The position numbers and the translations under genes are program-made. This document shows, piece by piece, positions 36,192-57,677 of a stretch of DNA of 64,000 nucleotides. The stretch lies in NCBI GenBank assembly GCA_000092065.1, contig CP000582.1; one strand, written 5' to 3'. This stretch comes from Ostreococcus lucimarinus. Lineage: Eukaryota. Below the pieces are notes generated by a model. It saw only the letters and a program-made list of their open reading frames with translations. It made no database searches and was not told the origin of the DNA. The first letter of the stretch is position 1. Each line of letters opens with the position of its first letter.

Positions 36192-36279
36192 ACTAAACGG
36201 TGTAAAATACGTATATATCCACGGTTCATGACTCGTCATGTGTGTAGGTACTCTCTAAAGGGGCGATATAAATTTTTCC
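36192..36279 (-). repeat. Inverted-repeat arm R (pairs with 35429..35518)
   Basis: See arm L. The arm contains TATATA-like boxes and ATG codons, and lies between the divergent ORFs starting at 36086 (-) and 36446 (+). Confidence 0.92.
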
Positions 36280-36445: not shown

Positions 36446-38239
36446 ATGCCTCGCACGTGCGTGTGCACGAACCCGAACTGCGACAAAGATGTCGAGCGAT
36501 TCGCGTTCCAACTCGGCAAGCACTGGAAAGACGACGTGCTCAAATCGATTCTATCGAGTCTCAGACCCGGAGCGGATGCTGATGACGTAGAAAAATACTT
36601 TTTGCGCGCGATGACGAAGCCCGATGGTGTTCGAGTGTCCTCGCAGCACTTCTTCTGGTACCATTTAGCATGGTCTCGAGGAGACCGCCCGAAGCTGGTC
36701 TTCAAAGATGGCGCGCACGTCCGGCCGACGTACATGCTCCATTCGAATCGGCCGACGTACGCGGGCGAACGAATCGTCGATCCGGCTCGTGTAGAATGTT
36801 TATCACCGCGCGAGACGCGTCTGCGCGTGAAGGCGCCGGCACGGGCGCCCCTTTCAGAGATTTCAAATTTGAATGAGGACGACGTGCATGCGACACAAGC
36901 TGGTGTCAGAGTTGGGATTAAACGGCGACGATCTGCTCCTGCGGCAATTTGCTCGCACAATCGCGCGCAAAACATGTCTTTGAACTCGTTTGAACGGGGA
37001 AGGCCGGGGGAAGAGACGTGCCGCGTGCAAGAAGGGACTATCCACAAGTTACGCTGTGATGAGTTGAAGTTGAGCGAGGCGCTGCGGGAAGAGCGTCAGC
37101 ACGCAGACGACGCGCGCGAGGACGTTCGTTTGCTCACGGAAGAACTTGAACGTATTCAAGAAGAAATGCACGACCAGGATCGAAAATCCTCGTTCGTAAC
37201 TATGCGATACTTGCGGGCGACGAGAGCTAGTGATAAGCAAATCAAAGCGCTTACTGGGTGGCCAACTTTGAAAACATTCGATGCTTTGTGGCGTTTCGTC
37301 AACGCGGGCGACCGCAATGCGACGCAAAACTTGTCGATTGTCAAACGAAAATGGAGGGGCGATTCGACGAGCGCGACGGGTTCGCATGGAACGGTCGTTC
37401 CGCGGAAAAAGAGCTTCAAATGGGAAGATGTATTTTTGGCGTGGTGGATGAGAGCGAAGATGGACTTGACCGCGGATCAACTTGCATACTTCGTCGGAAT
37501 ACACAAATCGACGCTTACACGTGCGCTACATCAAATGACATCATTTTTAACGGTTTTTATACGTGCTTACGGTGGCGACCCGATCGATCCCGAATGGATC
37601 CAGATGACAACAGGGGAGGATTGGAAAGAAGCATACGGGCAGAAACCTTATGAGATTATCGACGTGACTGAAGTGCCCATGGAGACTCCAGATGACCCAT
37701 ATATGCAGCGTTTGTTTTACAGTCATTATAAGAAGCGCTACGTGTGCAAATTTCTTGGCGCCTGTCACTCAAATTGTCTTGCCGCTTTCTGTTCAGTTGG
37801 GTTCCCTGGATCCATTTTTGACAATGAAATTTGCTTTGCTGGAAAGGATCATCCGATGCTTAATCATGCGGTACACCGAGCCAGCATCCGCCGGAGGACG
37901 TTCACAGACGAGAACGACGAAAATGTAGTCGTTCCCGAAACAATTGCAGCTGATCGTGGCTTTTGCGAAGGGTTGAATAGACAGTTTGAACGGGATGCGT
38001 TCAGGCTTGTGCACCCTGCGTTTTCAAGAGGCAAGAATGTGGCCTTCTCCAAGGAGGACATTCTCGACACCAGGGCGCAAGCATGTCGCCGAGTGCTAAT
38101 TGAAAATGCTTTCGGTCGCGTCAAGACGATTTGGAAGCGTATGCGCGGTCCAATAGCTATCTCCAAGCTGAAATCGGTGCATCAGGAGTGGCCAATAATA
38201 TTTTTCCTAGCGCTAGATTTACAAGCTTCGCTAAGGTAG
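36446..38239 (+). CDS. PIF/Harbinger-superfamily DDE transposase (DDE_Tnp_4 type), intronless
   Basis: HTH block: DLTADQLAYFVGIHKSTLTRALHQMTSFL. Catalytic blocks: EIIDVTEVPMETP (D), YSHYKKRYVCKF, GFPGSIFDNEI (D) and TIAADRGFCEG (D/E position). RRVLIENAFGRVKTIWKRM matches the R..VE..FG.LK..W..L signature. The N-terminus has a Cys/His pattern (CVCTNPNC ... SSQHF) reminiscent of a THAP-like finger; that last point is speculative. Confidence 0.8.
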   Translation: MPRTCVCTNPNCDKDVERFAFQLGKHWKDDVLKSILSSLRPGADADDVEKYFLRAMTKPDGVRVSSQHFFWYHLAWSRGDRPKLVFKDGAHVRPTYMLHSNRPTYAGERIVDPARVECLSPRETRLRVKAPARAPLSEISNLNEDDVHATQAGVRVGIKRRRSAPAAICSHNRAQNMSLNSFERGRPGEETCRVQEGTIHKLRCDELKLSEALREERQHADDAREDVRLLTEELERIQEEMHDQDRKSSFVTMRYLRATRASDKQIKALTGWPTLKTFDALWRFVNAGDRNATQNLSIVKRKWRGDSTSATGSHGTVVPRKKSFKWEDVFLAWWMRAKMDLTADQLAYFVGIHKSTLTRALHQMTSFLTVFIRAYGGDPIDPEWIQMTTGEDWKEAYGQKPYEIIDVTEVPMETPDDPYMQRLFYSHYKKRYVCKFLGACHSNCLAAFCSVGFPGSIFDNEICFAGKDHPMLNHAVHRASIRRRTFTDENDENVVVPETIAADRGFCEGLNRQFERDAFRLVHPAFSRGKNVAFSKEDILDTRAQACRRVLIENAFGRVKTIWKRMRGPIAISKLKSVHQEWPIIFFLALDLQASLR

Positions 38240-42646: not shown

Positions 42647-45600
42647 GTGACATATGACATCGTATTACAACGTTTTACCCCCACTTCGCAAGGACCGACC
42701 ACCCCATATCCATGTGCTATAAAAGCTAACTCAAAATGGAAGCTCGTACGTCTGAAACGCTTGGCGCTCGAGCGTTTCCGATGTCCGATGTTAACGCGCC
42801 ACAAACCGGAGAGCGTTCAGAATGGTACGCCCCGAAATGAATCACGAATGAGCAATCTAGACACACGCGCTATGTCGAACCCTTACTTTCAGGTCGGGCG
42901 ATGGGACTGCACGGACGAGCTCGAGGGGTGTCAATTCTCCGCGCCACATACGTCGGTGTCAGTTCCTAATTTCGAAGAGATTCAGACCCTTCACTACACC
43001 TGCGTGTATGAAGTGGCGATCACGTGTACACAGCGGCATGATATGCATAACGATGAGTTCGCGCATGTACTTAGTTCTGTCATCGAGCTCGCAAATCGCG
43101 TTGACCTGACACGACTTAGGCAACATCACTCCATAGATAACTTTGCCACACACGTTCTCACTTTTCGGTTCATTCTGGACCTGTTGAGGCAAACTTATCA
43201 GGAATACATCAAAGGAAGCATAGAAAATAATTCGTTTGAGCATGTCGAATTTACTTTCAACAATTGCATGGATGGTACGCACGGAATGGCAACATGCTTT
43301 AAACCGAATAAAAAGCATAGTCACCTTTGTTACATTTTGGATATTTCGCAGGCAGAAAGAAGTTGCAATGGTCGTACTGATGACACAAAATGCGTGCACG
43401 ACAAAATTACTATGAACGATCGCGTTCTTTCCGCGGCTAAGATCCCAGACAACGCAGTGAATAAACAATTCAGTGCTAGTATACTCAATGATGTGTATGG
43501 TTTCGATTCAAGTCTGTTCCATATTTCTCAGTCGGAAACCCTCTGCATGGACCCACAACAACGACTATTACTTCTTGCAGCAGCAGACTTATACCTGAGT
43601 AACACACGTGTTTGTCAACACGACGACTCCTTCTGCGTGCACGTCGGTGTATCGTGGAATGACTTTGAGGAAATTCGCAGAAAGTATAGTGCAGACTTTT
43701 TCTCCACTTATGATTCGACGGGAACATCAATAAGTGTCGCATCGGGTAGAATTGCGTATTATTTTGATTTCAAAGGGTGTGCTGTGACGATTGATACGGC
43801 TTGTTCATCATCTTTGGTTGCGTTGCATCAATCCATGTACGCAGCTGGCTCGCTCCGTGAATCAAGTGCACTTGTATGTGGCATCAACTTGATTTTGACA
43901 ACCACGATGACACATCGATTTCAGCTTGCTGGAATGATGTCTTCAGAGCATCGATGTATGACATTTGATGCACGCGCGGATGGCTACGTCCGGAGTGAGG
44001 CATGCAACATCGTACTCTTACACTTCAATGGCTTCACAAAAACTCATAGGAATGTACTGCGGCATGACGTTCATATGTCATGCGTCGTCAATCAAGATGG
44101 AACATCAACTGGACTTACGGCACCTAATGGAACAGCTCAGCGGAACCTGATGAATGAGTTACTATCGGACGTTTATAACCCTTCAAAACACGTTGGTGCT
44201 AAAATACATGCCCACGGCACAGGTACGCCTCTTGGGGATCCGATAGAGGTGTTTGCTATCAATTCTGCCCTCTCGTTTTCGTCACTGTGCAGGCTGTATG
44301 TGTCAGAAAAGTCGATGCGAGGGCACACAGAACCTGCTTCAGGTCTATGCAGCACCATACTTGCTTTCGTATCAGGTGCACAGTGCAAGCTACATGGTCA
44401 ACCACATTTACAGCAGTTAAACAATCATATACTAACATCGGTTGATGAAAGTATTTTTCAGCGTTCACTGCATTCCAGTTTTCCCTTAACTTCTATGGCG
44501 AGTGTCACCACAGTAAGCTCCTTCGCGTTCCAAGGGACGAACGCAATGGCTTCACTGACATATATCGACAAATGCAGTATTAGAGTGATTCGCAACACGT
44601 CAGGTCTGAGATCTTTGGTCAAGTTGGAGACTGAATCCCCTGTAAGACTCCCGTACACATTTTCTTGCCTTAGCATCGTCAATGGGAAAATGATACAGCT
44701 AACTTCAATGATTCACGACAAAACATTGAAGCGACTTTTGGATCATCGTGTAGCTGATATGCATCTTATGCCAGCCACAGGCCATCTTGAACTTGAAAGA
44801 GAGCTCACGAAGTGCGCTCTCGTAAGGAATGAACCATATCTTCTGACAAAGATCGCATTTATGCTGCCTCTCAAGCTTGATGAAAGCAATCAACTTATCA
44901 CAGAGATGAACACACATGGTCGCTTACGCGTTGGATGTGGCTCTGGCATATCCAATTACTGGTGTAGTACTGCACGACTTCAAATACCAGTAGGACGTGC
45001 CTGGTGCACGGACCGTACTTTTTATCTGACTAGTAAACTCGTTTCTCGGCGTTTCAAAGGTGCGACCGCAACAATAGCAGGGACGACGCCAATTCTCGAT
45101 TCACAAAATGTCGTGAATCCGTGTATCCAGGATGCGAGTCTACAATGCTCTGCATACGTCTTGAACACGTCAGCTTTCGCATCTGATACAACCTACATGG
45201 ACTGCGTATCGTTACTTAAGCTACCAACAACAATTCAAGACGTCATAGTTGTTAATCAGACAGGAAAAATACTTGTTAGATCGACGCATGTTGACATGTT
45301 GCAGAAGACGCAGCATGTGACTGAAAGTAATAACTCTGTCACAAGTAACTCTTCGAGTAACAATAAAACGCAGACATGGATACATCGTTTACTGTGTAAA
45401 GTATCAACCGTACGGATGAAAGCTGGCTTACGCACTCGCACATGCTTGGAACTCGCGAGATTGTTGTACCACGCGAGACAACAAAGAGTGCTGATATCAA
45501 ATATGCAAAACTTGCGTGAAGTAGGCAGTTTACATGCTCCAGAACTGATGCCCATCATGCGCGAAATGGGTCGTAAGTCAATGCAAGATATTAATTCGGC

Positions 45601-48600
45601 TAGTGCCTCTCTTTGCGCGGTTGCGCTGCTGCAGGCTTGCGGCGCTCGTGCGCGCGTTTCCGGCGCCCACGTGCGTGCAAACGACATCGTCCACGAGGAC
45701 GCTTCGGCCGCGCCCGCAGTCTGTGGATCGTGCGTGCGCGCCACCGTGCAATCTTCCGCGCAGGAACGCAGCGAGCCATTGGTGCTGAGTGTCGCGAGCG
45801 CCCCGCACACCGCGCCAGCCCGAGCGTTGCGATCGATCGCCGCCGGGGCGTCGATCGCCGGGGCGCTGTGCGTTGAGCGGCTGCTTCCGGCGTTCGGTCG
45901 CCGGACGCCCGCCGCGTCGCGCGACGGCGCGGCGACGACCACGGCGTCGCCGGCACCGAAAGTCTCGAGCGTGTTCGTGACTGGCGGTCTGGGCGCGTTG
46001 GGTCAGACTTCGGCGGCGTGGTACGCGCATCGAGGCGTTCGCCACGCCTACTTGACTGGTCGCCGCGGGCGCGGAGAGTCCCTTCTGCTGCGATGGTCGT
46101 CGCGCGGCGGTACCGACGTGAGCGCATTGCACGTGCTTCGCGTCGACGCGTGTGCGACCGACGAGGCGTCGTACGGCGGTGCGCGCGCGCACGCGCGCGT
46201 GCGCGCACACGGCGTGCTGCACGCGGGCGGCGTGCTACGCGACTCTTTGACTGCTCGCCAATCCGCGTCGGCCCATCGATACGTGTGGTCGTCCAAAGTA
46301 GTGTCCGCGCACGCATTGCTCCGCCAGTGCGTCGGCGTCGAGCGCGGCGCGCGTCACATCGCGCTGTTCTCGTCGGTGGCGGCGCTGCTGGGGAGTCCAG
46401 GGCAATGCAACTACAGCGCGGCCAACGCCGCGCTGGACGCGCGAGCCGCACACGAGTGGTGCCGCGGGTACGCGGTGCAATCCGTGCAGTGGGGCGCGTG
46501 GGACGGCGCGGGAATGGCGCTGACAAACGCGTCTGTACTCAGGAACGCGCGCACGACAGGCATCGGCGTGCTCGATCCGCAAGCCGGGCTCGGGGCCGTA
46601 CACGTCGCGCTTCAGGGCGCATCAGTGACGGGTCGCTGGCGGGCAATCCAAGGCGTCCTGGCCGTCGTCCCGTTCCAGTGGTCCGTGCTCGCGCGCGCGC
46701 AGCGCTCGCGCGCGCTGATTGCGGAGTACCGCGCGGAGTCGGCGCGGTCGAGCGCTCCAGTCGCCGTCCATCCGGGCGCCGAGGAAGACGCGGCGCGCGA
46801 TGTGTCAGATGAGAGCGTGCGGCAGATCGTGGCCTCCGCCGTGACGCGCGCGCTCGGCAGAGACGTGTCGGTGGACGCGTCGCTCATGGAAGAGGGCCTA
46901 GACTCGCTCGCGGCGGTCGAGCTCGGAGGGGCGTTACAAAAGGAAACGGGCGTGAACATGCCGGCCACGCTGGCATTTGACTACCCGACGATCACCGCGA
47001 TATCTGGGTACCTGAAGGGTGCGATGCTGGCGCGATCGCGTGCGCGCCAATCGAGCGGCGCGGCGTCCAGCGCCGCTCGCACGCGCGCCGCGAGCGGCGC
47101 GGTCGCGCATTCGCGCGACTCGATGCCAGGTATTGCATCCAACGCGCGCGAAATCTTGGGTCTTGCGCCCGTTGTTATGGCCATCAGACGGAGCGTGCGA
47201 CGACTCGACGCGGATGATCGAGAGCCAAAGCCTGCTCGACATGGCGGCTCGGCGTTGTTTTCATCGTTCGTGAGGTGCGTCATGGCAGAGCGAGCCTCTG
47301 AAGATCGCTTCGACACGCCATCGTTGGGCAGGCAGCCGAGCGCGACAGCGCGCGTGGTCTCCTTGACGAAAGCCAGAGATTTCACTACACAAGCTCTCGA
47401 CAGCATGCCGAAATGCAACGAGATTGAGCTGAGCGTCGTCAGCGCTGTGTCGAGTAAGGCATCAGGCGCGCACGATGCCGTGCGTGTGAACAACATGCGA
47501 CATGCGTGCGGCGAAGTGTGTGATCCACAAAGCTCAAAATCGCACGAGTTCGTCGCTCGGCGTCTTGTGCAGTTTGGGTACTTCATCGAGCGCAGCTTGT
47601 TTGACGGGGAGCAGTTCTCCGTAACGGCGCACGAGGCGCGGTTGATGGACCCGCAGCAGCGCGTGCTCCTGGAGAACGCGCTCGCCGCGACGAGTGCGAC
47701 GCCGCACAGCGCGCCGAAGCCAGCCACAGCCGTGTCCGTCGGCGCTTGGACGTCTCAGTACGCAGACATGTGCCGCGTGTACGAGCCAACGCCGGGGCCG
47801 TACTCTGGCGTTGCTTCCGCCTTGAGCGTGCTGTGCGGTCGCGTATCGTACACGTTTGGTATGCGTGGCCCGTCCGTGTGTGTCGACACCGCGTGCTCCT
47901 CCTCGCTCGTGGCCGCGCATGTTGCGAGCTCTCACTTGCGCGATGGATCGTGCGAGGACGCCCTCGTCGCCGGCGTGAGCGTGAACGTCGGCATCGGCAC
48001 CTTCCTCGTGGCCACCGCCGCGAGCATGCTATCGTTCGATGGTCGGTGCAAAACCTTGGATGCCAGCGCCGACGGTTACGCCAAGGGCGAGTGCTGCGTG
48101 GTCCTGCGCGTGTCGGTGGACGGGGCGAGCGCTGGAGCGCCCAAAGCGCCCGATCTTCCAAACGCCGAGTCTCCCTCTCTCGCTCTTCTCGAACAGACCG
48201 GTGTGAACCAGGATGGACGGTCGAGCTCGCTCACCGCACCAAACGGGCCGTCGCAGCAGGCACTCGTGGCCGATGCGCTTCTCCGCTCGGGGCTGCACGG
48301 CGACGCGCTCGGCAGGCTGGAGATGCACGGCACGGGTACTTCGCTGGGAGATCCGATAGAGGTCGGCGCCGCGCTTGAGGTTCTCGCGCCGCCGACGCGC
48401 GCGGACCGGGCGCCGTCCAGGGGCCCCGCGCTCACGCTTGAGGGCGTGAAGCCACGCGCTGGCCACTGCGAACCAGGGGCTGGCGCGGTTGGGTTGCTGT
48501 TTGCGATGGCAAACTTGACGGAGCGAGCCGTCGCGTCCCTCGTCCACCTGCGCCAGCTCAACCCTCACGTCGAGGCCGCGACGCGCCGAAACGCACCGTC

Positions 48601-51600
48601 GCCGCATGCGCGCGCGCCGGTGCTCGCGCGACAAGGCATGCCGCGACCGGATGACGGCGCGTCTGAGGCTGGAGCAGCGGACGCTGCTCGAGCGCGCGTG
48701 CGGCGATCCGGCGTGAGCGGCTTCGCGTTCCAGGGCACAAACGCGCACGCAATCATGGCCCGGGGACCCGGACAGGCGACTGCGCCCGGGTACACGGGAA
48801 GCACGCACACGGCGGCGCGTGCGTGGGAGCGTCAGCGCCACTGGTGCGCGCCAGAACGGCACTGCCTCATCGAGTCCGTGCGCGCTCTGCATCCTCGCGA
48901 GGGAGACTCGAGCGCGTTGGCGCGGTCGTGCGTGCGCCTGTGTCGGTCCGCGTCGCTCGCTGGCATGCTTGATCACGCCGTCGGGCTCCGGACGCTGCTA
49001 CCAGGCACAGCGCACGTCGAGATATGTCGAGCCATGGCGGGCGCGCTGGCAGACCAGCCGCTCGCCGACATCTCGCTGTCGCACGTATCTTTTGCAGCGC
49101 CCCTCGAGCTTCGAGCGCCGACGACCGACGTGCTGTGCGACGTCACGCCGCAAGGCGTGGCCCGCGTGGGCGTGCGCGTGTCGTCGTCCTCTGCCGCCGC
49201 GCCGTTCCTCGCGGGCGCGCTCAGCCGCAGAAGCGCCTCAAGAATTACTGCGTCTCCGGCGCACCTCTCGCGAGGACCGGCGATGCCCGCGCTGGACGTG
49301 CAGCCTTGTGTTCACGGCGCGAGCTGGCTGCGCTCGTCGCAGCGACGAGGCCCGGGCGCGGAGCACCGCGTGTACGGCGACATACGCGCGCGTCAGATGT
49401 CCACGCTGTCGGCTGCGGCGTATCACTCGCCGCCCGCAGTGCTCGATGCCGCGCTGCACGCGCTCAGCGCGTGCGCGCCGCCGCCGGGTAGCGATGCGAC
49501 AGAAGAGAGCCCGCACGTCCCGGCCACGATCGGCGGCGTCCGCACGCGAGGCGGGCACTCGGACATATACCGCGCCCGGTTCGCGCTCGCGACGGCTCCG
49601 CCTGAGCGCGGGGAGCGGAACGCGTCCACGCGCAGATCTCGTCACCACCTGTGGGACTGGTCGAGTCTTTCGGCGGCGCATCGAGGGTGCGTGGTGCACG
49701 CGCTGGAGTCTCGACGACTCGGTGGCGCCGCGGTCGTGCGCTCGCGAGCACAACAGCGCTCGAGGGCACCGCCGCCGCGTCGCGCGGCCGCGCCGCGTGT
49801 GCTTTATGGAGTCGGGCAACAGCGCGCGTGCGGCGCGGCGGATGGCCAGGGCGCGCGTCGACGCTCAACCCTCAACTCGCAGTGCTTTGTGGACGACGCG
49901 TCGCACCGCCGCGAGCTGATGGAGACCCACGCGTCACCATCGATCGCGCAAGGCAGCACGCGAAGCAGCACGCGCGCCTCTCTTTGCGCGGTTGCGCTGC
50001 TGCAGGCTTGCGGCGCTCGTGCGCGCGTTTCCGGCGCCCACGTGCGTGCAAACGACATCGTCCACGAGGACGCTTCGGCCGCGCCCGCAGTCTGTGGATC
50101 GTGCGTGCGCGCCACCGTGCAGTCTTCCGCGCAGGAACGCAGCGAGCCATTGGTGCTGAGTGTCGCGAGCGCCCCGCACACCGCGCCAGCCCGAGCGTTG
50201 CGATCGATCGCCGCCGGGGCGTCGATCGCCGGGGCGCTGTGCGTTGAGCGTCTGCTTCCGACGTTCGGTCGCCGGACGCCCGCCGCGTCGCGCGACGGCG
50301 CGGCGACGACCACGGCGTCGCCGGCACCGAAAGTCTCGAGCGTGTTCGTGACTGGCGGTCTGGGCGCGTTGGGTCAGACTTCGGCGGCGTGGTACGCGCA
50401 TCGAGGCGTTCGCCACGCCTACTTGACTGGTCGCCGCGGGCGCGGAGAGTCCCTTCTGCTGCGATGGTCGTCGCGCGGCGGTACCGACGTGAGCGCATTG
50501 CACGTGCTTCGCGTCGACGCGTGTGCGACCGACGAGGCGTCGTACGGCGGTGCGCGCGCGCACGCGCGCGTGCGCGCACACGGCGTGCTGCACGCGGGCG
50601 GCGTGCTACGCGACTCTTTGACTGCTCGCCAATCCGCGTCGGCCCATCGATACGTGTGGTCGTCCAAAGTAGTGTCCGCGCACGCATTGCTCCGCCAGTG
50701 CGTCGGCGTCGAGCGCGGCGCGCGTCACATCGCGCTGTTCTCGTCGGTGGCGGCGCTGCTGGGGAGTCCAGGGCAATGCAACTACAGCGCGGCCAACGCC
50801 GCGCTGGACGCGCGAGCCGCACACGAGTGGTGCCGCGGGTACGCGGTGCAATCCGTGCAGTGGGGCGCGTGGGACGGCGCGGGAATGGCGCTGACAAACG
50901 CGTCTGTACTCAGGAACGCGCGCACGACAGGCATCGGCGTGCTCGATCCGCAAGCCGGGCTCGGGGCCGTACACGTCGCGCTTCAGGGCGCATCAGTGAC
51001 GGGTCGCTGGCGGGCAATCCAAGGCGTCCTGGCCGTCGTCCCGTTCCAGTGGTCCGTGCTCGCGCGCGCGCAGCGCTCGCGCGCGCTGATTGCGGAGTAC
51101 CGCGCGGAGTCGGCGCGGTCGAGCGCTCCAGTCGCCGTCCATCCGGGCGCCGAGGAAGACGCGGCGCGCGATGTGTCAGATGAGAGCGTGCGGCAGATCG
51201 TGGCCTCCGCCGTGACGCGCGCGCTCGGCAGAGACGTGTCGGTGGACGCGTCGCTCATGGAAGAGGGCCTAGACTCGCTCGCGGCGGTCGAGCTCGGAGG
51301 GGCGTTACAAAAGGAAACGGGCGTGAACATGCCGGCCACGCTGGCATTTGACTACCCGACGATCACCGCGATATCTGGGTACCTGAAGGGTGCGATGCTG
51401 GCGCGATCGCGTGCGCGCCAATCGAGCGGCGCGGCGTCCAGCGCCGCTCGCACGCGCGCCGCGAGCGGCGCGGTCGCGCATTCGCGACGTACAACCATTA
51501 CTCAGCTCCCTCGTCTACGTCTATCATACGTTCCGCATGAAGTCAGCCGACGAACGACTCTTGGCATTAGCGGTCAATATTCTCACGAGCTTAGACACTT

Positions 51601-54600
51601 TAGCTCTGCGGGACCTTCGACCAGTAACTTTGAGGGAGTCCTCTTTGTTCGCATTCATAACTCCACCAAGCCCTTACCCGTGCATCCATATTTCATTGGC
51701 AACTTTTTGCGTTGTGACGAACTCGAGTTCGGCTTGTTTGGCGCACCGCACAGCGAATGGACTACTCTGGACGCGCGGCAGATTCTCTTGATTGAGAGTG
51801 TACACACTATCCAGCTGAACAACAGTTCAGACGTTTCATTGCGCACTCTAGAGACGACGGCTGTTCTTGTTGGAGCACAAGCGGTAGATTCAACTGACGA
51901 GCATAGCGTTGAGATACAGTACAACGCCTACTCTGGCGTTGCTTCCGCCTTGAGCGTGCTGTGCGGTCGCGTATCGTACACGTTTGGTATGCGTGGCCCG
52001 TCCGTGTGTGTCGACACCGCGTGCTCCTCCTCGCTCGTGGCCGCGCATGTTGCGAGCTCTCACTTGCGCGATGGATCGTGCGAGGACGCCCTCGTCGCCG
52101 GCGTGAGCGTGAACGTCGGCATCGGCACCTTCCTCGTGGCCACCGCCGCGAGCATGCTATCGTTCGATGGTCGGTGCAAAACCTTGGATGCCAGCGCCGA
52201 CGGTTACGCCAAGGGCGAGTGCTGCGTGGTCCTGCGCGTGTCGGTGGACGGGGCGAGCGCTGGAGCGCCCAAAGCGCCCGATCTTCCAAACGCCGAGTCT
52301 CCCTCTCTCGCTCTTCTCGAACAGACCGGTGTGAACCAGGATGGACGGTCGAGCTCGCTCACCGCACCAAACGGGCCGTCGCAGCAGGCACTCGTGGCCG
52401 ATGCGCTTCTCCGCTCGGGGCTGCACGGCGACGCGCTCGGCAGGCTGGAGATGCACGGCACGGGTACTTCGCTGGGAGATCCGATAGAGGTCGGCGCCGC
52501 GCTTGAGGTTCTCGCGCCGCCGACGCGCGCGGACCGGGCGCCGTCCAGGGGCCCCGCGCTCACGCTTGAGGGCGTGAAGCCACGCGCTGGCCACTGCGAA
52601 CCAGGGGCTGGCGCGGTTGGGTTGCTGTTTGCGATGGCAAACTTGACGGAGCGAGCCGTCGCGTCCCTCGTCCACCTGCGCCAGCTCAACCCTCACGTCG
52701 AGGCCGCGACGCGCCGAAACGCACCGTCGCCGCATGCGCGCGCGCCGGTGCTCGCGCGACAAGGCATGCCGCGACCGGATGACGGCGCGTCTGAGGCTGG
52801 AGCAGCGGACGCTGCTCGAGCGCGCGTGCGGCGATCCGGCGTGAGCGGCTTCGCGTTCCAGGGCACAAACGCGCACGCAATCATGGCCCGGGGACCCGGA
52901 CAGGCGACTGCGCCCGGGTACACGGGAAGCACGCACACGGCGGCGCGTGCGTGGGAGCGTCAGCGCCACTGGTGCGCGCCAGAACGGCACTGCCTCATCG
53001 AGTCCGTGCGCGCTCTTCATCCTCGCGAGGGAGACTCGAGCGCGTTGGCGCGGTCGTGCGTGCGCCTGTGTCGGTCCGCGTCGCTCGCTGGCATGCTTGA
53101 TCACGCCATCGGGCTCCGGACGCTACTACCAGGCACAGCGCACGTCGAGATATGTCGAGCCATGGCGGGCGCGCTGGCAGACCAGCCGCTCGCCGACATC
53201 TCGCTGTCGCACGTATCTTTTGCAGCGCCCCTCGAGCTTCGAGCGCCGACGACCGACGTGCTGTGCGACGTCACGCCGCAAGGCGTGGCCCGCGTGGGCG
53301 TGCGCGTGTCGTCGTCCTCTGCCGCCGCGCCGTTCCTCGCGGGCGCGCTCAGCCGCAGAAGCGCCTCAAGAATTACTGCGTCTCCGGCGCACCTCTCGCG
53401 AGGACCGGCGATGCCCGCGCTGGACGTGCAGCCTTGTGTTCACGGCGCCATCAGACGGAGCGTGCGACGACTCGACGCGGATGATCGAGAGCCAAAGCCT
53501 GCTCGACATGGCGGCTCGGCGTTGTTTTCATCGTTCGTGAGGTGCGTCATGGCAGAGCGAGCCTCTGAAGATCGCTTCGACACGCCATCGTTGGGCAGGC
53601 AGCCGAGCGCGACAGCGCGCGTGGTCTCCTTGACGAAAGCCAGAGATTTCACTACACAAGCTCTCGACAGCATGCCGAAATGCAACGAGATTGAGCTGAG
53701 CGTCGTCAGCGCTGTGTCGAGTAAGGCATCAGGCGCGCACGATGCTGTGCGTGTGAACAACATGCGACATGCGTGCGGCGAAGTGTGTGATCCACAAAGC
53801 TCAAAATCGCACGAGTTCGTCGCTCGGCATCTTGTGCAGTTTGGGTACTTCATCGAGCGCAGCTTGTTTGACGGGGAGCAGTTCTCCGTAACGGCGCACG
53901 AGGCGCGGTTGATGGACCCGCAGCAGCGCGTGCTCCTGGAGAACGCGCTCGCCGCGACGAGCGCGACGCCGCACAGCGCGCCGAAGCCAGCCACAGCCGT
54001 GTCCGTCGGCGCTTGGACGTCTCAGTACGCAGACATGTGCCGCGTGTACGAGCCAACGCCGGGGCCGTACTCTGGCGTTGCTTCCGCCTTGAGCGTGCTG
54101 TGCGGTCGCGTATCGTACACGTTTGGTATGCGTGGCCCGTCCGTGTGTGTCGACACCGCGTGCTCCTCCTCGCTCGTGGCCGCGCATGTTGCGAGCTCTC
54201 ACTTGCGCGATGGATCGTGCGAGGACGCCCTCGTCGCCGGCGTGAGCGTGAACGTCGGCATCGGCACCTTCCTCGTGGCCACCGCCGCGAGCATGCTATC
54301 GTTCGATGGTCGGTGCAAAACCTTGGATGCCAGCGCCGACGGTTACGCCAAGGGCGAGTGCTGCGTGGTCCTGCGCGTGTCGGTGGACGGGGCGAGCGCT
54401 GGAGCGCCCAAAGCGCCCGATCTTCCAAACGCCGAGTCTCCCTCTCTCGCTCTTCTCGAACAGACCGGTGTGAACCAGGATGGACGGTCGAGCTCGCTCA
54501 CCGCACCAAACGGGCCGTCGCAGCAGGCACTCGTGGCCGATGCGCTTCTCCGCTCGGGGCTGCACGGCGACGCGCTCGGCAGGCTGGAGATGCACGGCAC

Positions 54601-56623
54601 AGGTACTTCGCTGGGAGATCCGATAGAGGTCGGCGCCGCGCTTGAGGTTCTCGCGCCGCCGACGCGCGCGGACCGGGCGCCGTCCAGGCCCCCCGCGCTC
54701 ACGCTTGAGGGCGTGAAGCCACGCGCTGGCCACTGCGAACCAGGGGCTGGCGCGGTTGGGTTGCTGTTTGCGATGGCAAACTTGACGGAGCGAGCCGTCG
54801 CGTCCCTCGTCCACCTGCGCCAGCTCAACCCTCACGTCGAGGCCGCGACGCGCCGAAACGCACCGTCGCCGCATGCGCGCGCGCCGGTGCTCGCGCGACA
54901 AGGCATGCCGCGACCGGATGACGGCGCGTCTGAGGCTGGAGCAGCGGACGCTGCTCGAGCGCGCGTGCGGCGATCCGGCGTGAGCGGCTTCGCGTTCCAG
55001 GGCACAAACGCGCACGCAATCATGGCCCGGGGACCCGGACAGGCGACTGCGCCCGGGTACACGGGAAGCACGCACACGGCGGCGCGTGCGTGGGAGCGTC
55101 AGCGCCACTGGTGCGCGCCAGAACGGCACTGCCTCATCGAGTCCGTGCGCGCTCTTCATCCTCGCGAGGGAGACTCGAGCGCGTTGGCGCGGTCGTGCGT
55201 GCGCCTGTGTCGGTCCGCGTCGCTCGCTGGCATGCTTGATCACGCCATCGGGCTCCGGACGCTACTACCAGGCACAGCGCACGTCGAGATATGTCGAGCC
55301 ATGGCGGGCGCGCTGGCAGACCAGCCGCTCGCCGACATCTCGCTGTCGCACGTATCTTTTGCAGCGCCCCTCGAGCTTCGAGCGCCGACGACCGACGTGC
55401 TGTGCGACGTCACGCCGCAAGGCGTGGCCCGCGTGGGCGTGCGCGTGTCGTCGTCCTCTGCCGCCGCGCCGTTCCTCGCGGGCGCGCTCAGCCGCAGAAG
55501 CGCCTCAAGAATTACTGCGTCTCCGGCGCACCTCTCGCGAGGACCGGCGATGCCCGCGCTGGACGTGCAGCCTTGTGTTCACGGCGCGAGCTGGCTGCGC
55601 TCGTCGCAGCGACGAGGCCCGGGCGCGGAGCACCGCGTGTACGGCGACATACGCGCGCGTCAGATGTCCACGCTGTCGGCTGCGGCGTATCACTCGCCGC
55701 CCGCAGTGCTCGATGCCGCGCTGCACGCGCTCAGCGCGTGCGCGCCGCCGCCGGGTAGCGATGCGACAGAAGAGAGCCCGCACGTCCCGGCCACGATCGG
55801 CGGCGTCCGCACGCGAGGCGGGCACTCGGACATGTACCGCGCCCGGTTCGCGCTCGCGACGGCTCCGCCTGAGCGCGGGGAGCGGAACGCGTCCACGCGC
55901 AGATCTCGTCACCACCTGTGGGACTGGTCGAGTCTTTCGGCGGCGCATCGAGGGTGCGTGGTGCACGCGCTGGAGTCTCGACGACTCGGTGGCCTCACGA
56001 CGAATTCATTTTATCATAGCTTTACGTCTACGCAGGCATATAAGTTGGCTCATATTCCACGGCCAGACATCCTATCGCAGTCTTTCACTTCAATGAAGAC
56101 TATAAATGCTGTCGACAAAGCTAGCAGCACATTTACAGAACGCAGTAGTGATGCGATGGAAATTGTTAACGCCGTGCAACGCGAGATTTTGGAAATTTTA
56201 TCAACATTAACGACCAGTCCTGTAAGTTTAGATGATACACTTGCGAGCCACGGATTGGACTCACTGGGCATTGCATATTTTTTTATTCAAGTTGGCAAAC
56301 GGTTCAATGTTGAAGTGACTGTTGACAGTCTTGGCACGAACACCACAGTCAGTAGTATAGTGCATCAGATATCACAGATGCTTAGTGCAAGGGTGATTTT
56401 CCTACACACCAAGGACCTGGTGCGCGAGCGAAAAGCCGACAGCTCCTCAAGAAGAGGAAGGAGCACTGCGATCACATCGATGGTGTCTGCATACCGTCGA
56501 CACTTGCAGTCAACTGAATTCGAGCCCAAAGCCTGTTTTGCAAGAGGCGTACTTGCTTGCGCAATATTTACTATATTTATCATTGCGTACGGATATCACG
56601 CACACAGATTCGACATGTTTTAG
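42647..56623 (+). CDS. Giant modular type I polyketide synthase, apparently AT-less: (N-term unknown)-KS-DH-KR-ACP-KS-DH-KR-ACP-KS-DH(truncated)-KS-DH-ACP-TM helix; 4658 aa, single ORF
   Basis: 4x KS (DTACSSSL Cys, HGTGT, G-H). 4x DH-like (LLDHRVADMHLMP / MLDHA[VI]GLRTLLP, plus NPCIQDASLQ / AVLDAALHA). 2x KR (VFVTGGLGALGQ ... GQCNYSAANAALDA). 3x ACP (EEGLDSLAAVEL x2, SHGLDSLGIAYF). I could find no GHSxG/AFHS acyltransferase signature, and the KS-to-DH linkers are only ~28 aa. The first in-frame Met is 42647; a later Met start is possible. Confidence 0.9.
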   Translation: MTYDIVLQRFTPTSQGPTTPYPCAIKANSKWKLVRLKRLALERFRCPMLTRHKPESVQNGTPRNESRMSNLDTRAMSNPYFQVGRWDCTDELEGCQFSAPHTSVSVPNFEEIQTLHYTCVYEVAITCTQRHDMHNDEFAHVLSSVIELANRVDLTRLRQHHSIDNFATHVLTFRFILDLLRQTYQEYIKGSIENNSFEHVEFTFNNCMDGTHGMATCFKPNKKHSHLCYILDISQAERSCNGRTDDTKCVHDKITMNDRVLSAAKIPDNAVNKQFSASILNDVYGFDSSLFHISQSETLCMDPQQRLLLLAAADLYLSNTRVCQHDDSFCVHVGVSWNDFEEIRRKYSADFFSTYDSTGTSISVASGRIAYYFDFKGCAVTIDTACSSSLVALHQSMYAAGSLRESSALVCGINLILTTTMTHRFQLAGMMSSEHRCMTFDARADGYVRSEACNIVLLHFNGFTKTHRNVLRHDVHMSCVVNQDGTSTGLTAPNGTAQRNLMNELLSDVYNPSKHVGAKIHAHGTGTPLGDPIEVFAINSALSFSSLCRLYVSEKSMRGHTEPASGLCSTILAFVSGAQCKLHGQPHLQQLNNHILTSVDESIFQRSLHSSFPLTSMASVTTVSSFAFQGTNAMASLTYIDKCSIRVIRNTSGLRSLVKLETESPVRLPYTFSCLSIVNGKMIQLTSMIHDKTLKRLLDHRVADMHLMPATGHLELERELTKCALVRNEPYLLTKIAFMLPLKLDESNQLITEMNTHGRLRVGCGSGISNYWCSTARLQIPVGRAWCTDRTFYLTSKLVSRRFKGATATIAGTTPILDSQNVVNPCIQDASLQCSAYVLNTSAFASDTTYMDCVSLLKLPTTIQDVIVVNQTGKILVRSTHVDMLQKTQHVTESNNSVTSNSSSNNKTQTWIHRLLCKVSTVRMKAGLRTRTCLELARLLYHARQQRVLISNMQNLREVGSLHAPELMPIMREMGRKSMQDINSASASLCAVALLQACGARARVSGAHVRANDIVHEDASAAPAVCGSCVRATVQSSAQERSEPLVLSVASAPHTAPARALRSIAAGASIAGALCVERLLPAFGRRTPAASRDGAATTTASPAPKVSSVFVTGGLGALGQTSAAWYAHRGVRHAYLTGRRGRGESLLLRWSSRGGTDVSALHVLRVDACATDEASYGGARAHARVRAHGVLHAGGVLRDSLTARQSASAHRYVWSSKVVSAHALLRQCVGVERGARHIALFSSVAALLGSPGQCNYSAANAALDARAAHEWCRGYAVQSVQWGAWDGAGMALTNASVLRNARTTGIGVLDPQAGLGAVHVALQGASVTGRWRAIQGVLAVVPFQWSVLARAQRSRALIAEYRAESARSSAPVAVHPGAEEDAARDVSDESVRQIVASAVTRALGRDVSVDASLMEEGLDSLAAVELGGALQKETGVNMPATLAFDYPTITAISGYLKGAMLARSRARQSSGAASSAARTRAASGAVAHSRDSMPGIASNAREILGLAPVVMAIRRSVRRLDADDREPKPARHGGSALFSSFVRCVMAERASEDRFDTPSLGRQPSATARVVSLTKARDFTTQALDSMPKCNEIELSVVSAVSSKASGAHDAVRVNNMRHACGEVCDPQSSKSHEFVARRLVQFGYFIERSLFDGEQFSVTAHEARLMDPQQRVLLENALAATSATPHSAPKPATAVSVGAWTSQYADMCRVYEPTPGPYSGVASALSVLCGRVSYTFGMRGPSVCVDTACSSSLVAAHVASSHLRDGSCEDALVAGVSVNVGIGTFLVATAASMLSFDGRCKTLDASADGYAKGECCVVLRVSVDGASAGAPKAPDLPNAESPSLALLEQTGVNQDGRSSSLTAPNGPSQQALVADALLRSGLHGDALGRLEMHGTGTSLGDPIEVGAALEVLAPPTRADRAPSRGPALTLEGVKPRAGHCEPGAGAVGLLFAMANLTERAVASLVHLRQLNPHVEAATRRNAPSPHARAPVLARQGMPRPDDGASEAGAADAARARVRRSGVSGFAFQGTNAHAIMARGPGQATAPGYTGSTHTAARAWERQRHWCAPERHCLIESVRALHPREGDSSALARSCVRLCRSASLAGMLDHAVGLRTLLPGTAHVEICRAMAGALADQPLADISLSHVSFAAPLELRAPTTDVLCDVTPQGVARVGVRVSSSSAAAPFLAGALSRRSASRITASPAHLSRGPAMPALDVQPCVHGASWLRSSQRRGPGAEHRVYGDIRARQMSTLSAAAYHSPPAVLDAALHALSACAPPPGSDATEESPHVPATIGGVRTRGGHSDIYRARFALATAPPERGERNASTRRSRHHLWDWSSLSAAHRGCVVHALESRRLGGAAVVRSRAQQRSRAPPPRRAAAPRVLYGVGQQRACGAADGQGARRRSTLNSQCFVDDASHRRELMETHASPSIAQGSTRSSTRASLCAVALLQACGARARVSGAHVRANDIVHEDASAAPAVCGSCVRATVQSSAQERSEPLVLSVASAPHTAPARALRSIAAGASIAGALCVERLLPTFGRRTPAASRDGAATTTASPAPKVSSVFVTGGLGALGQTSAAWYAHRGVRHAYLTGRRGRGESLLLRWSSRGGTDVSALHVLRVDACATDEASYGGARAHARVRAHGVLHAGGVLRDSLTARQSASAHRYVWSSKVVSAHALLRQCVGVERGARHIALFSSVAALLGSPGQCNYSAANAALDARAAHEWCRGYAVQSVQWGAWDGAGMALTNASVLRNARTTGIGVLDPQAGLGAVHVALQGASVTGRWRAIQGVLAVVPFQWSVLARAQRSRALIAEYRAESARSSAPVAVHPGAEEDAARDVSDESVRQIVASAVTRALGRDVSVDASLMEEGLDSLAAVELGGALQKETGVNMPATLAFDYPTITAISGYLKGAMLARSRARQSSGAASSAARTRAASGAVAHSRRTTITQLPRLRLSYVPHEVSRRTTLGISGQYSHELRHFSSAGPSTSNFEGVLFVRIHNSTKPLPVHPYFIGNFLRCDELEFGLFGAPHSEWTTLDARQILLIESVHTIQLNNSSDVSLRTLETTAVLVGAQAVDSTDEHSVEIQYNAYSGVASALSVLCGRVSYTFGMRGPSVCVDTACSSSLVAAHVASSHLRDGSCEDALVAGVSVNVGIGTFLVATAASMLSFDGRCKTLDASADGYAKGECCVVLRVSVDGASAGAPKAPDLPNAESPSLALLEQTGVNQDGRSSSLTAPNGPSQQALVADALLRSGLHGDALGRLEMHGTGTSLGDPIEVGAALEVLAPPTRADRAPSRGPALTLEGVKPRAGHCEPGAGAVGLLFAMANLTERAVASLVHLRQLNPHVEAATRRNAPSPHARAPVLARQGMPRPDDGASEAGAADAARARVRRSGVSGFAFQGTNAHAIMARGPGQATAPGYTGSTHTAARAWERQRHWCAPERHCLIESVRALHPREGDSSALARSCVRLCRSASLAGMLDHAIGLRTLLPGTAHVEICRAMAGALADQPLADISLSHVSFAAPLELRAPTTDVLCDVTPQGVARVGVRVSSSSAAAPFLAGALSRRSASRITASPAHLSRGPAMPALDVQPCVHGAIRRSVRRLDADDREPKPARHGGSALFSSFVRCVMAERASEDRFDTPSLGRQPSATARVVSLTKARDFTTQALDSMPKCNEIELSVVSAVSSKASGAHDAVRVNNMRHACGEVCDPQSSKSHEFVARHLVQFGYFIERSLFDGEQFSVTAHEARLMDPQQRVLLENALAATSATPHSAPKPATAVSVGAWTSQYADMCRVYEPTPGPYSGVASALSVLCGRVSYTFGMRGPSVCVDTACSSSLVAAHVASSHLRDGSCEDALVAGVSVNVGIGTFLVATAASMLSFDGRCKTLDASADGYAKGECCVVLRVSVDGASAGAPKAPDLPNAESPSLALLEQTGVNQDGRSSSLTAPNGPSQQALVADALLRSGLHGDALGRLEMHGTGTSLGDPIEVGAALEVLAPPTRADRAPSRPPALTLEGVKPRAGHCEPGAGAVGLLFAMANLTERAVASLVHLRQLNPHVEAATRRNAPSPHARAPVLARQGMPRPDDGASEAGAADAARARVRRSGVSGFAFQGTNAHAIMARGPGQATAPGYTGSTHTAARAWERQRHWCAPERHCLIESVRALHPREGDSSALARSCVRLCRSASLAGMLDHAIGLRTLLPGTAHVEICRAMAGALADQPLADISLSHVSFAAPLELRAPTTDVLCDVTPQGVARVGVRVSSSSAAAPFLAGALSRRSASRITASPAHLSRGPAMPALDVQPCVHGASWLRSSQRRGPGAEHRVYGDIRARQMSTLSAAAYHSPPAVLDAALHALSACAPPPGSDATEESPHVPATIGGVRTRGGHSDMYRARFALATAPPERGERNASTRRSRHHLWDWSSLSAAHRGCVVHALESRRLGGLTTNSFYHSFTSTQAYKLAHIPRPDILSQSFTSMKTINAVDKASSTFTERSSDAMEIVNAVQREILEILSTLTTSPVSLDDTLASHGLDSLGIAYFFIQVGKRFNVEVTVDSLGTNTTVSSIVHQISQMLSARVIFLHTKDLVRERKADSSSRRGRSTAITSMVSAYRRHLQSTEFEPKACFARGVLACAIFTIFIIAYGYHAHRFDMF
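43480..44560 (+). other. PKS KS1 domain (AT-moderate composition)
   Basis: FDSSLFHISQSETLCMDPQQRLLL; TIDTACSSSLVALHQS (Cys codon near 43801); HAHGTGTPLGDPIE; SMRGHTEPASG; SSFAFQGTNAMASL. Confidence 0.85.
44600..45290 (+). other. PKS DH1 domain (AT-moderate composition)
   Basis: LLDHRVADMHLMPATGHLE (the HxxxGxxxxP variant with D) and NPCIQDASLQ (the DxxxQ motif). Confidence 0.65.
45960..46560 (+). other. PKS KR1 catalytic subdomain (GC-rich, repeat A copy 1)
   Basis: VFVTGGLGALGQTSAAWYAHRG; FSSVAALLGSPGQCNYSAANAALDA. Confidence 0.8.
46817..47013 (+). other. PKS ACP1
   Basis: VRQIVASAVTRALG..SLMEEGLDSLAAVELGGALQ..LAFDYPTITAISGYL. Confidence 0.85.
47560..48757 (+). other. PKS KS2 (GC-rich, repeat B copy 1)
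   Basis: FDGEQFSVTAHEARLMDPQQRVLLE; VCVDTACSSSLVAAHVA; EMHGTGTSLGDPIE; PRAGHCEPGAG; SGFAFQGTNAHAIM. Confidence 0.85.
48840..49726 (+). other. PKS DH2 (complete)
   Basis: MLDHAVGLRTLLPGTAHVE and YHSPPAVLDAALHALS. Confidence 0.65.
49976..51486 (+). repeat. PKS intragenic repeat A, copy 2
   Basis: See copy 1. Confidence 0.92.
50331..51384 (+). other. PKS KR2 + ACP2 (repeat A copy 2, offset +4371 from KR1/ACP1)
   Basis: Translation is identical to KR1/ACP1 except for LLPAFG->LLPTFG upstream. Confidence 0.85.
51684..52885 (+). other. PKS KS3, chimeric: divergent AT-moderate N-terminal part (to 51928) fused in-frame to GC-rich repeat B from 51929
   Basis: HPYFIGNFLRCDELEFGLFGAPHSEWTTLDARQILLIESV aligns with FGYFIERSLFDGEQFSVTAHEARLMDPQQRVLLENA of KS2/KS4. 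From Y|SGVASALS onward the sequence is identical to KS2/KS4. Confidence 0.8.
51929..53448 (+). repeat. PKS intragenic repeat B, partial copy 2 (1520 bp, from mid-KS to mid-DH)
   Basis: See copy 1. Both ends fall inside domains. Confidence 0.92.
52968..53448 (+). other. PKS DH3, truncated after the first half at the repeat junction (lacks the LDAALH half)
   Basis: MLDHAIGLRTLLP is present. At ..QPCVHGA|IRRSVRRLD the sequence jumps directly into the inter-module linker of repeat B copy 3. Confidence 0.7.
53447..55993 (+). repeat. PKS intragenic repeat B, copy 3
   Basis: See copy 1. It abuts partial copy 2 with a 2-bp microhomology (gc). Confidence 0.92.
53827..55993 (+). other. PKS KS4 + DH4 (repeat B copy 3, offset +6267 from KS2/DH2)
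   Basis: The motifs are the same as in KS2/DH2. Substitutions seen: ARRLVQ->ARHLVQ, SRGPAL->SRPPAL, DHAVG->DHAIG, HSDIY->HSDMY. Confidence 0.85.
56154..56385 (+). other. PKS terminal ACP3 (AT-moderate composition)
   Basis: AMEIVNAVQREILEIL..LDDTLASHGLDSLGIAYFFIQVGKRF..IVHQISQML. Confidence 0.8.
56531..56600 (+). other. C-terminal hydrophobic helix of the PKS (putative membrane anchor)
   Basis: ACFARGVLACAIFTIFIIAYGY is followed by HAHRFDMF and the stop. No thioesterase or reductase release domain is present. Confidence 0.5.
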
Positions 56624-56795: not shown

Positions 56796-56798
56796 GTG

Positions 56799-57677
56799 AT
56801 GCCGAGGCGCACATCATTAGCCAACGGCAGCTCGCTGTACGACGGGTTGCGATTTAAGTCGAGCGGGTTCAAGCGTTCGGGCAGGAAAGTGAACTTTTAC
56901 ACGTGTAGTACGATCGACGACTCGGACAGAAACGCGTCCTCGACGGGGAGATGCACGTTCGAGGCGGAGATCCGGCACAGAGCCGCGACGGACGAGTACT
57001 TCATCACCAAGTACGTCGGCCATTCGTTCGGTTGCACCGCGCTCTCGCCCCACATCGACGGGGAAACGCGAGCCGAGCTCGTCGATGACGTGCAAATGCA
57101 AGCCATATCCCTGCAACGAGGTCGCGTCGCTGTACAATCGTGTATCGATTACGTGTTCCGGCGCTACTCGTACGTCGTCGACGAAGCGCCGGCTGCGTCG
57201 TTACTTCAGTGCGTGCGGCGACGAAGTTCGGTGGCCACTCGCAGAGAGGCTCTTAAGCGCTTCGCTCAGACGAAAGTGCGATCGAAATTACAGGGCGAAC
57301 TCATGACCTGCATCGCGCACTCGCGCCAAGTCATAACCTCGTTGAGCCTGACCGAACGCCCGACGTCACGCGACATTCGAAAGTATTATCATGTGTTCGG
57401 ATTGCTGCACACGCACTGCAGTCGTCTTCCGGAGTTCGACTCGCTCGCAACCGTATGGATGGCCGCAGATACGACTAGCAGCGCCGCGCTCATTCATGCG
57501 CTCGAGCTCGGCATCAAAAAATTCGACAACGCACTGCGCACCGTTCGCCCCGCGACTGCCTCACAAACTGAAGCCTTGCACAACGCTCACGGCCATCTTC
57601 CTCCTTACGATCTCAGTGAAGCCGAGGCGTTGACGGCTCTTCGTAGTATAGCGCGTTCTGCCCAAACACGTTCGTAG
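56799..57677 (+). CDS. GC-rich intronless orphan protein with N-terminal WRKY/FLYWCH/FAR1-like zinc-finger signature (possibly transposon-derived)
   Basis: YDGLRFKSSGFKRSGRKVNFYTCS...GRCTFEAEIRH...YFITKYVGHSFGC fits the beta-strand C..C...H.(H/C) pattern of WRKY-GCM1 superfamily DNA-binding domains. The rest of the protein has no recognisable family. An imperfect hairpin lies at 57690-57714, just after the stop. Confidence 0.4.
   Translation: MPRRTSLANGSSLYDGLRFKSSGFKRSGRKVNFYTCSTIDDSDRNASSTGRCTFEAEIRHRAATDEYFITKYVGHSFGCTALSPHIDGETRAELVDDVQMQAISLQRGRVAVQSCIDYVFRRYSYVVDEAPAASLLQCVRRRSSVATRREALKRFAQTKVRSKLQGELMTCIAHSRQVITSLSLTERPTSRDIRKYYHVFGLLHTHCSRLPEFDSLATVWMAADTTSSAALIHALELGIKKFDNALRTVRPATASQTEALHNAHGHLPPYDLSEAEALTALRSIARSAQTRS

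Follow-up and report, generated by a model that had tools for sequence, protein, structure and literature searches.

Two adjacent ketosynthases and half a dehydratase at an in-frame, 2-nucleotide join in a polyketide synthase gene of Ostreococcus lucimarinus

How could a modular polyketide synthase (PKS) come to have two ketosynthase (KS) domains in a row, with half of a dehydratase (DH) and no acyl carrier protein (ACP) between them, and is such an arrangement real? This question is raised by a PKS gene of the alga Ostreococcus lucimarinus, which lies in the 64,000-nucleotide stretch of contig CP000582.1 (GenBank assembly GCA_000092065.1) that we analyzed and call the window. The gene is an open reading frame (ORF) on the plus strand at 42647-56623, with 4658 codons counted from GTG, and its domain order is KS1-DH1-KR1-ACP1-KS2-DH2-KR2-ACP2-KS3-DH3(N half)-KS4-DH4-ACP3, where KR is a ketoreductase. 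(All of the segments of the gene described below are on the plus strand.) The annotated “polyketide synthase” XP_001416177.1 (4526 amino acids) lies within this ORF and starts at ATG 43043. Our preferred answer, to which we assign a probability of roughly 0.55, is that a real and recent rearrangement, mediated by microhomology, left the enzyme with a redundant KS that lacks its own ACP and with a dead half-DH.

To map the repeats in the gene, we compared the window to itself with BLASTN. Repeat A, which encodes KR-ACP, is present at 45605-47115 (A1, with KR1-ACP1; 71% GC) and again at 49976-51486 (A2, whose KR2-ACP2 are also recognizable by their motifs), and the two copies are 99.8% identical. 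Repeat B, which encodes the linker that follows an ACP, a KS, and a DH, is present at 47180-49726 (B1) and at 53447-55993 (B2), with 99.6% identity. There is also a partial copy of repeat B, which we call B' (1520 bp). B' lies at 51929-53448 and is 99.8% identical to 47801-49320 and to 54068-55587, so that it corresponds to positions 622-2141 of repeat B. Because the repeats are 1.5-2.5 kb long and more than 99.6% identical, these relations are not due to chance.

B' ends at 53448 and B2 begins at 53447, so the two overlap by 2 nucleotides. The sequence at the join is ...GTTCACGGC GCC ATCAGACGG..., with DH sequence on the left and linker sequence on the right, and the only nucleotides common to both sides are “GC” (53447-53448). 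The 14-mer across the join is CACGGCGCCATCAG, and the 28-mer is TGTGTTCACGGCGCCATCAGACGGAGCG. The join is in frame: the codon GCC at 53447-53449 encodes alanine, and the translation runs ..LDVQPCVHGA|IRRSVRRLDADDREPK.., or CVHGA followed by IRRSVRRL (the spanning peptide is ..GPAMPALDVQPCVHGAIR). Because the alanine codon may derive from either parent, the break at the protein level is VHG(A)|IRR. A previous reading of this locus, made from the sequence alone, had claimed that the partial copy of repeat B stops in the middle of the DH at 53447/53448 and is joined straight to the inter-module linker that precedes KS4. Both the self-comparison and the sequence at the join agree with this.

How much of DH3 is left? 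The domain starts at about 52946-52967 (with HWCAPERH at 52967), and it has the catalytic histidine motif LDHAIGL at 53096, where the sequence is LDHAIGLRTLLPGT. In contrast, the motif with the catalytic aspartate, VLDAALHAL, is retained in DH2 (at 49439) and in DH4 (at 55706) and is absent from DH3. PKS_DH_N from Pfam matches DH3 (E = 1.7e-8), and this is the sole match in the interval between KS3 and KS4 (52967-53911), where no KR or PP-binding domain was found at E ≤ 1.

To locate the break within the fold, we used an AlphaFold model of DH2, which is a double hot-dog (predicted local distance difference test [pLDDT] of 71; predicted template modeling score [pTM] of 0.74). The model matches solved DH domains from PKSs, namely GphF DH1, CurJ, CurF, CurK, PksJ DH1, and the erythromycin DH, with E values of 1e-10 to 1e-7 and template modeling (TM) scores of 0.5-0.7. 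(A sequence-only search of the PDB with DH2 was barely significant, and the fold was assigned by comparing the model.) We also aligned DH2 with DH1 and with 20 algal DH domains from homologue searches, for a total of 22 DHs. The first half of the model (residues 20-146) carries D52, H53, and P62, which are invariant or nearly so among the 22 DHs. The second half (residues 172-300, with strands and a helix) carries P206, D210, and P235, which are nearly invariant. The linker between the halves (residues 147-171) is modeled with low confidence, and pLDDT is under 50 at residues 159-169. In the numbering of the DH2 model, DH3 ends after residue 168, which is inside this flexible linker, with His53 upstream of the break and Asp210 lost. 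Similarly, in a hidden Markov model of the DH domain that we built from the aligned sequences, positions 1-169 of 268 match DH3. As judged from the model, DH3 is a complete first hot-dog half without the second half. PKS dehydratases have an established mechanism that uses both His and Asp, so DH3, with the histidine but without the aspartate, cannot dehydrate. The sequence-only reading had assigned to DH3 the half with an HxxxGxxxxP-like motif and not the half with DAALH that DH2 and DH4 keep; the motif positions and Pfam support this division, and the structural model adds that the two halves part in the linker between them.

The four KSs appear to be intact. The motifs DTACSSS, HGTGT, and K..xGH[CT] each occur four times in the protein, once per KS, and the N-terminal and C-terminal ketoacyl-synt domains of Pfam each match four stretches. 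KS3 has DTACSSS at 52013, HGTGT at 52454, and KPRAGHC, which is a full Cys-His-His set, as in KS4 (MDPQQR at 53912, active-site Cys at 54152, HGTGT at 54593). KS3 is a chimera. Its N-terminal part (..FGAPHSEWTTLDARQILLIE..) is recognizable as the start of a KS and comes from a unique segment, U (51487-51928; 50% GC), which also contains a native linker. The rest of KS3 and the N-terminal hot-dog half of DH3 come from B', and from 51929 on, KS3-DH3 and KS4-DH4 differ at just 1 of 506 shared residues. By these motifs, KS3 looks catalytically complete. We considered whether KS3 might be a non-elongating KS (KS0) and rejected this, as it has lost neither the histidine of HGTGT nor the active-site cysteine. 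We also considered whether KS3 and KS4 might be a pair of a KS and a chain length factor (KS-CLF). In such pairs, which are found in polyunsaturated fatty acid (PUFA) synthases and in type II PKSs, one partner lacks the active-site cysteine, and both KS3 and KS4 have it.

The carrier proteins are fewer than the KSs. The protein has only three carrier serine motifs (GxDSL, at residues 1417, 2874, and 4536) and only two KR motifs. Module 3 is not closed by a carrier protein, as there is no PP-binding domain between KS3 and KS4. Module 4 includes a DH but no KR, and the only domain in the tail (55994-56620) is PP-binding. These results bear out two further claims, that KS3 is followed by KS4 with no KR or ACP between them and that DH4 sits in a module without a KR. 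The proposal that module 3 is “degenerate or non-elongating” is supported in its first part (the module has no second DH half, no catalytic Asp, no KR, and no ACP) and, in the usual KS0 sense, is not supported in its second part, given the Cys-His-His of KS3. Finally, Acyl_transf_1 was not among the families that match the 4658 residues at E ≤ 0.01, as is expected for a PKS that lacks acyltransferase (AT) domains. Only about 30 residues separate the C-terminus of each KS from the W-x5-W motif that opens the DH.

The GC content of the gene suggests where its repeats came from. All of the repeat blocks have GC of 68-71% and GC at third codon positions (GC3) of 76-80%, while the native parts of the gene and the neighboring genes have GC of 45-50%. 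The native parts are the N-terminal 2958 bp, segment U, and the tail, and their GC3 of 44-50% also resembles the neighboring genes. The N-terminal part (42647-45604; 45% GC, 44% GC3) includes a region without a recognized domain, KS1, and DH1, and the tail (55994-56623) includes ACP3 (at about 56186-56365, with GLDSL at 56252) and has a hydrophobic stretch at its C-terminus. The switches in GC content at 45605 and at 55994 are abrupt. From this contrast, we infer that a native low-GC PKS gene received copies of GC-rich module segments, either within or in place of its own sequence, and that these were then kept almost identical. These modules look as if they were imported from outside the low-GC compartment.

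Under our preferred reading, GC-rich KR-ACP and linker-KS-DH segments would have been copied over the native low-GC gene, and position 2141 of one linker-KS-DH copy would then have been joined to position 1 of the next through the 2-nucleotide microhomology, which would be a signature of end joining or of template switching during repair synthesis. The outcome would be equivalent to the in-frame loss of 2232 bp (744 codons, by arithmetic on the self-BLASTN coordinates) from a module 3 that resembled module 2. The lost sequence would comprise the second half of the DH; the 249-bp unique stretch, which is found between B1 and A2 at 49727-49975; the KR-ACP repeat; and the 64-bp linker, which is found between A1 and B1 at 47116-47179. 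In B1 and B2, by comparison, the DH is complete (in DH2, the histidine motif is LDHAVGL at 48968), and in B2 the post-ACP linker extends from 53447 to about 53860. Alternatively, a repair tract might have copied positions 622-2141 of repeat B and then restarted at position 1. The relationship of B' and B2 (see below) fits both routes. By either route, the result is the half-DH fused to a linker that normally follows an ACP.

What would this do to the enzyme? Without an ACP of its own, KS3 would be unable to complete its own elongation cycle. Because KS3 and KS4 are nearly identical, they would most likely be competitors, both for the chain carried by ACP2 and for the extender unit carried by ACP3. 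The enzyme might then work as an assembly line with three ACPs in which one KS is redundant, and the half-DH and the linker would be an inert spacer. DH4 is probably a passenger of the copy-paste unit.

All of this depends on the join, and a different account is that it arose by an error in assembly or cloning. In this case, module 3 of the real gene would be complete (KS3-DH3-KR3-ACP3), or the gene would have no more than three KSs, and a chimeric or deleted clone, or reads that were misplaced among such long and similar repeats, would have given the sequence in the database. We consider this account unlikely, and we think that the join is probably real, for several reasons. First, when repeats collapse or expand in an assembly, this occurs through homology, and it does not create a new adjacency that shares just 2 nucleotides. 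The join is also in frame. Second, other borders in the gene can be seen in independent public contigs (designated L001 to L010). The DH1|A1 border and the A1|linker|B1 borders are in L003, which includes native N-terminal sequence; the B1|unique|A2 borders are in L005, L006, and L010; the A2|U border is in L006; and the U|B' border is in L007, a read-sized contig from ENA with adapters at both ends. Besides the join itself, the only tested border that was not confirmed independently is between B2 and the tail (55993/55994), where L002 joins the tail differently.

Third, L001, L008, and L009, which are from different ENA assemblies and were made with different assemblers, begin at positions 1, 4, and 12 of repeat B. 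In other words, three independent assemblies break within 12 nucleotides of the left edge of the repeat. The 64-bp linker upstream of B1 does not vary (it is identical in all five of the contig copies that contain it). Together, the breaks and the invariant linker fit a second upstream context that converges at the edge of repeat B, as in the reference. Fourth, variants that occur only in B2 lie within its first 621 bp. This means that there is a second physical copy of the start of repeat B, and this copy needs an upstream neighbor. Fifth, B' has the B1-like (ancestral) state at positions 1155, 1243, and 1244 of the repeat, and at positions 1710, 1801, and 1818 it has the derived state, as B2 does. 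This is a single combination that is compatible with a simple tree, in which B' and B2 are sisters, and it is within the reach of one Sanger read. (The reference assembly was a finished Sanger genome.)

Several observations weigh against our reading and, in most cases, favor an artifact. We found no public contig that directly spans the join. The junction 28-mer had no matches in the JGI metagenome contigs, in viral contigs, or in prokaryotic genome contigs; these negatives carry little weight because a control 26-mer that is specific to U also had no matches in the JGI contigs. A protein query of 240 amino acids, centered on the junction, gave a single match that does not span it, but this search also missed known relatives, so it is a weak negative. 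B' has no private single-nucleotide polymorphism, and its left part resembles B1 and its right part resembles B2, so a consensus of mis-recruited reads could account for it. Near-identical genomes have been assembled along other paths: in L002 and L005, repeat A is followed by the linker and repeat B, without U and B'. Chimeras are common among the public short-read contigs that cover this region. Also, the functional part of our reading, with its redundant KS in a three-ACP line, is inferred. On balance, the suggestion of an assembly artifact in the sequence-only reading is weakened by the non-homologous 2-nucleotide join, the confirmed borders, and the breaks at the repeat edge, and it retains the point that no independent sequence spans the join.

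Adapter sequence (Nextera or TruSeq) is present in public ENA contigs of this region: in L001 at 2459-2477, in L006 at about 405-421, and at both ends of L007. In L006, a TruSeq adapter lies at the connection between U and repeat B, so we rejected this contig as evidence for a full-length DH3 downstream of U.

L002 (JGI 3300047157, Ga0494219_00130) is a 360-kb metagenome contig that matches the window at 99.97% identity in its flanks. The order in its PKS gene is A-linker-B-unique-A-linker-B(1-1996), with junctions at 11794/11795 and at 19737. These correspond to 44836|45605 in the window and to position 1996 of repeat B joined to the tail, or 49175(55442)|56238. Both junctions have 0-1 nucleotides of homology. 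The GC-rich block is out of frame with both native ends, and the gene is split into two ORFs. At 44836|45605, L003 agrees with the reference and not with L002. The PKS gene in L002 may be either a true variant or the product of a faulty assembly. In both cases it is informative: either illegitimate joins recur in this gene, given the two junctions with so little homology, or assemblies of the gene are untrustworthy.

If the join is real, the gene might still be dispensable and decaying, with the rearrangement as one of several neutral lesions. The two out-of-frame junctions in L002 would be explained this way. In addition, a loading domain, a thioesterase, and an AT are all absent from the protein; a search of 5.8 billion protein clusters gave no close orthologue of KS1-DH1 (the next best are 36-39% identical); and Ostreococcus sp. 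RCC809 reportedly lacks type I PKSs altogether (PMC4661987). However, the frame of 4658 codons is intact, and this includes about 1340 codons at 45-50% GC, a composition at which chance alone would give many stop codons. Just the native parts with 45% GC are open for about 986 codons, which is not expected by chance. Every catalytic motif is retained in the four KSs, the two KRs, and the three ACPs, and most of the differences between copies (6 of 10) are at third codon positions. We think that decay is quite improbable.

Another idea is that KS3 and KS4 are used in series on ACP3, by iteration or in a non-colinear manner, so that the enzyme performs one more extension than it has ACPs for, with the half-DH as a structural spacer. 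The sequence-only reading had likewise listed non-colinear use of ACP2 or ACP3 by KS3 among its alternatives. Both KSs have Cys-His-His, the frame and all of the downstream domains are intact, and the break is placed neatly in the linker between subdomains. Iterating or “stuttering” modules are known in modular PKSs. On the other hand, the repeats differ by just 0.2-0.4%, which leaves little time for selection to act on a new logic, and the substrate-binding bodies of KS3 and KS4 are almost identical, so the two are unlikely to distinguish chains that are one extension apart. Module 4 also lacks a KR, and its DH looks like a passenger. We give serial use only a slim chance. A broader proposal seems similarly doubtful to us: that the join is real and exemplifies a general process, by microhomology or template switching, that diversifies the outlier PKS genes of the Mamiellales, and that the competent tandem KSs share one ACP and give an extra, non-colinear extension. 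Such a process would act besides homologous duplication of modules, and its joins would tend to fall in linkers between domains or subdomains, which would yield new architectures that can be translated. Finally, U and B' (51487-53446) are not an intron whose removal restores a canonical three-module gene, as this segment has the ends AC..GC instead of GT..AG, has a length (1960 nucleotides) that is not a multiple of 3, and encodes an intact KS.

We take the host record to be chromosome 2 of O. lucimarinus CCE9901, based on the literature on the outlier region of that chromosome. The GC content of the window (about 45%) fits the low-GC outlier region. The ORFs that adjoin the PKS gene encode eukaryotic housekeeping proteins (separase, an SNF2 helicase, XPG, UTP6, tRNA synthetases, and an STN7-like kinase). 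Four of these ORFs are exact matches to CCE9901 proteins, and none of the ten neighboring ORFs that we scanned encodes an AT. Directly 3' of the PKS gene, at 56796-57677 on the plus strand, is an ORF of 293 amino acids with 56-58% GC and no match in Pfam, and this ORF is syntenic in L002. About 5 kb from the PKS gene, there is a pair of 86-nucleotide inverted repeats (35433-35518 and 36192-36277) that are 97% complementary and are separated by 673 nucleotides, with an ORF of 188 amino acids inside. The pair is just upstream of an ORF for a DDE_Tnp_4 transposase (36446-38239, plus strand, 52% GC). Together, these look like transposon material.

We also noticed features at the two ends of the PKS. 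The first 285 residues of the ORF (42647-43500) have no match in Pfam. Within them, residues 78-102 (NPYFQVGRWDCTDELEGCQFSAPHT) bear a weak likeness to the N-terminal piece of a KS in U (HPYFIGNFLRCDELEFGLFGAPHS) and could be a relic of an older KS start. The last 30 residues (56530-56620; ..ACFARGVLACAIFTIFIIAYGY..) are strongly hydrophobic (a Kyte-Doolittle score of about 2.2 over 19 residues). They may be a putative membrane anchor in the place that is usual for a thioesterase.

A related but distinct PKS is encoded by L004, an 8.3-kb contig (JGI 3300046169) whose DNA is 67-73% identical to repeats A and B. It also has tandem modules, which recur about every 4.2 kb, so the repeat-module organization extends beyond this species.

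The gene has been described before. Shelest et al. 2015 (PMC4661987, BMC Genomics 16:1015, Table S2) list it as OluPKS1 (JGI protein 119561), a non-iterative, trans-AT (AT-less) PKS with the domain string “KS-KR-ACP-KS-KR-ACP-KS2-ACP.” The adjacency of two KSs without an ACP is therefore already on record. Their table includes no DH domains, and the adjacency was left without comment. Nor does that account describe the map of the repeats, the half-DH, the mosaic in GC content, or the join by microhomology. The same study reported that modules are duplicated at 89-100% identity in the AT-less modular PKSs of prasinophytes, and it lists OtaPKS3 of O. tauri as “KR-ACP-KS3,” with three KSs in a row. 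More recently, giant PKS loci in the outlier regions of Mamiellales, which are the same compartment and gene family as OluPKS1, were found to gain, lose, and rearrange modules between strains, and even between a laboratory culture and the reference genome (bioRxiv 10.1101/2025.04.21.649811). That study presents the largest PKS genes as domain cartoons and includes neither this gene with four KSs nor base-level junctions, and we found no mention of OluPKS1 in its supplements.

Tandem KSs without an intervening carrier are also known from other AT-less systems. In module 10 of OzmH, from the hybrid nonribosomal peptide synthetase (NRPS) and trans-AT PKS for oxazolomycin, the tandem KSs were treated as domain redundancy and tested by mutating Cys to Gly (PMC9057759). 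The triad of the first KS in OzmH is mutated (Cys-Asn-His), whereas KS3 and KS4 of OluPKS1 are nearly identical and both have Cys-His-His. Also, unlike in OzmH, half a DH and a post-ACP linker lie between the KSs of OluPKS1. An engineered trans-AT chimera in which a KS without an ACP precedes another KS still made its product (Mabesoone et al. 2024, Science; PMC11260071), so an ACP-less tandem KS can be tolerated. That construct is artificial and bacterial and was fused at the LPTYPFx5W site after the KS, while the join in OluPKS1 is natural and lies inside the DH.

Modules that are nearly identical at the DNA level also have a bacterial precedent. The mycolactone PKS of Mycobacterium ulcerans has such modules and is prone to recombination, by which they are deleted or reshuffled. 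The mycolactone PKS is cis-AT and plasmid-borne, and its known rearrangements are homologous and are not microhomology joins.

Overall, the gene, its order of KSs, the gene family, and the instability of the locus were already known. What is new here is the anatomy of the join at base level, the clean half-DH, the chimeric KS3, the GC mosaic, and the observation that both of the tandem KSs look active. With the gene, the KS-KS order, and the instability of the locus already published, we do not see the finding as opening up a long-standing question. A real join would provide a base-level picture of how the number of modules changes in an algal assembly-line enzyme: by an illegitimate, in-frame join in a flexible linker, within repeats that are otherwise almost identical. 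A natural pair of tandem KSs that both look active would also be a small but usable test case for how well AT-less PKSs tolerate KSs without an ACP, which is relevant to PKS engineering.

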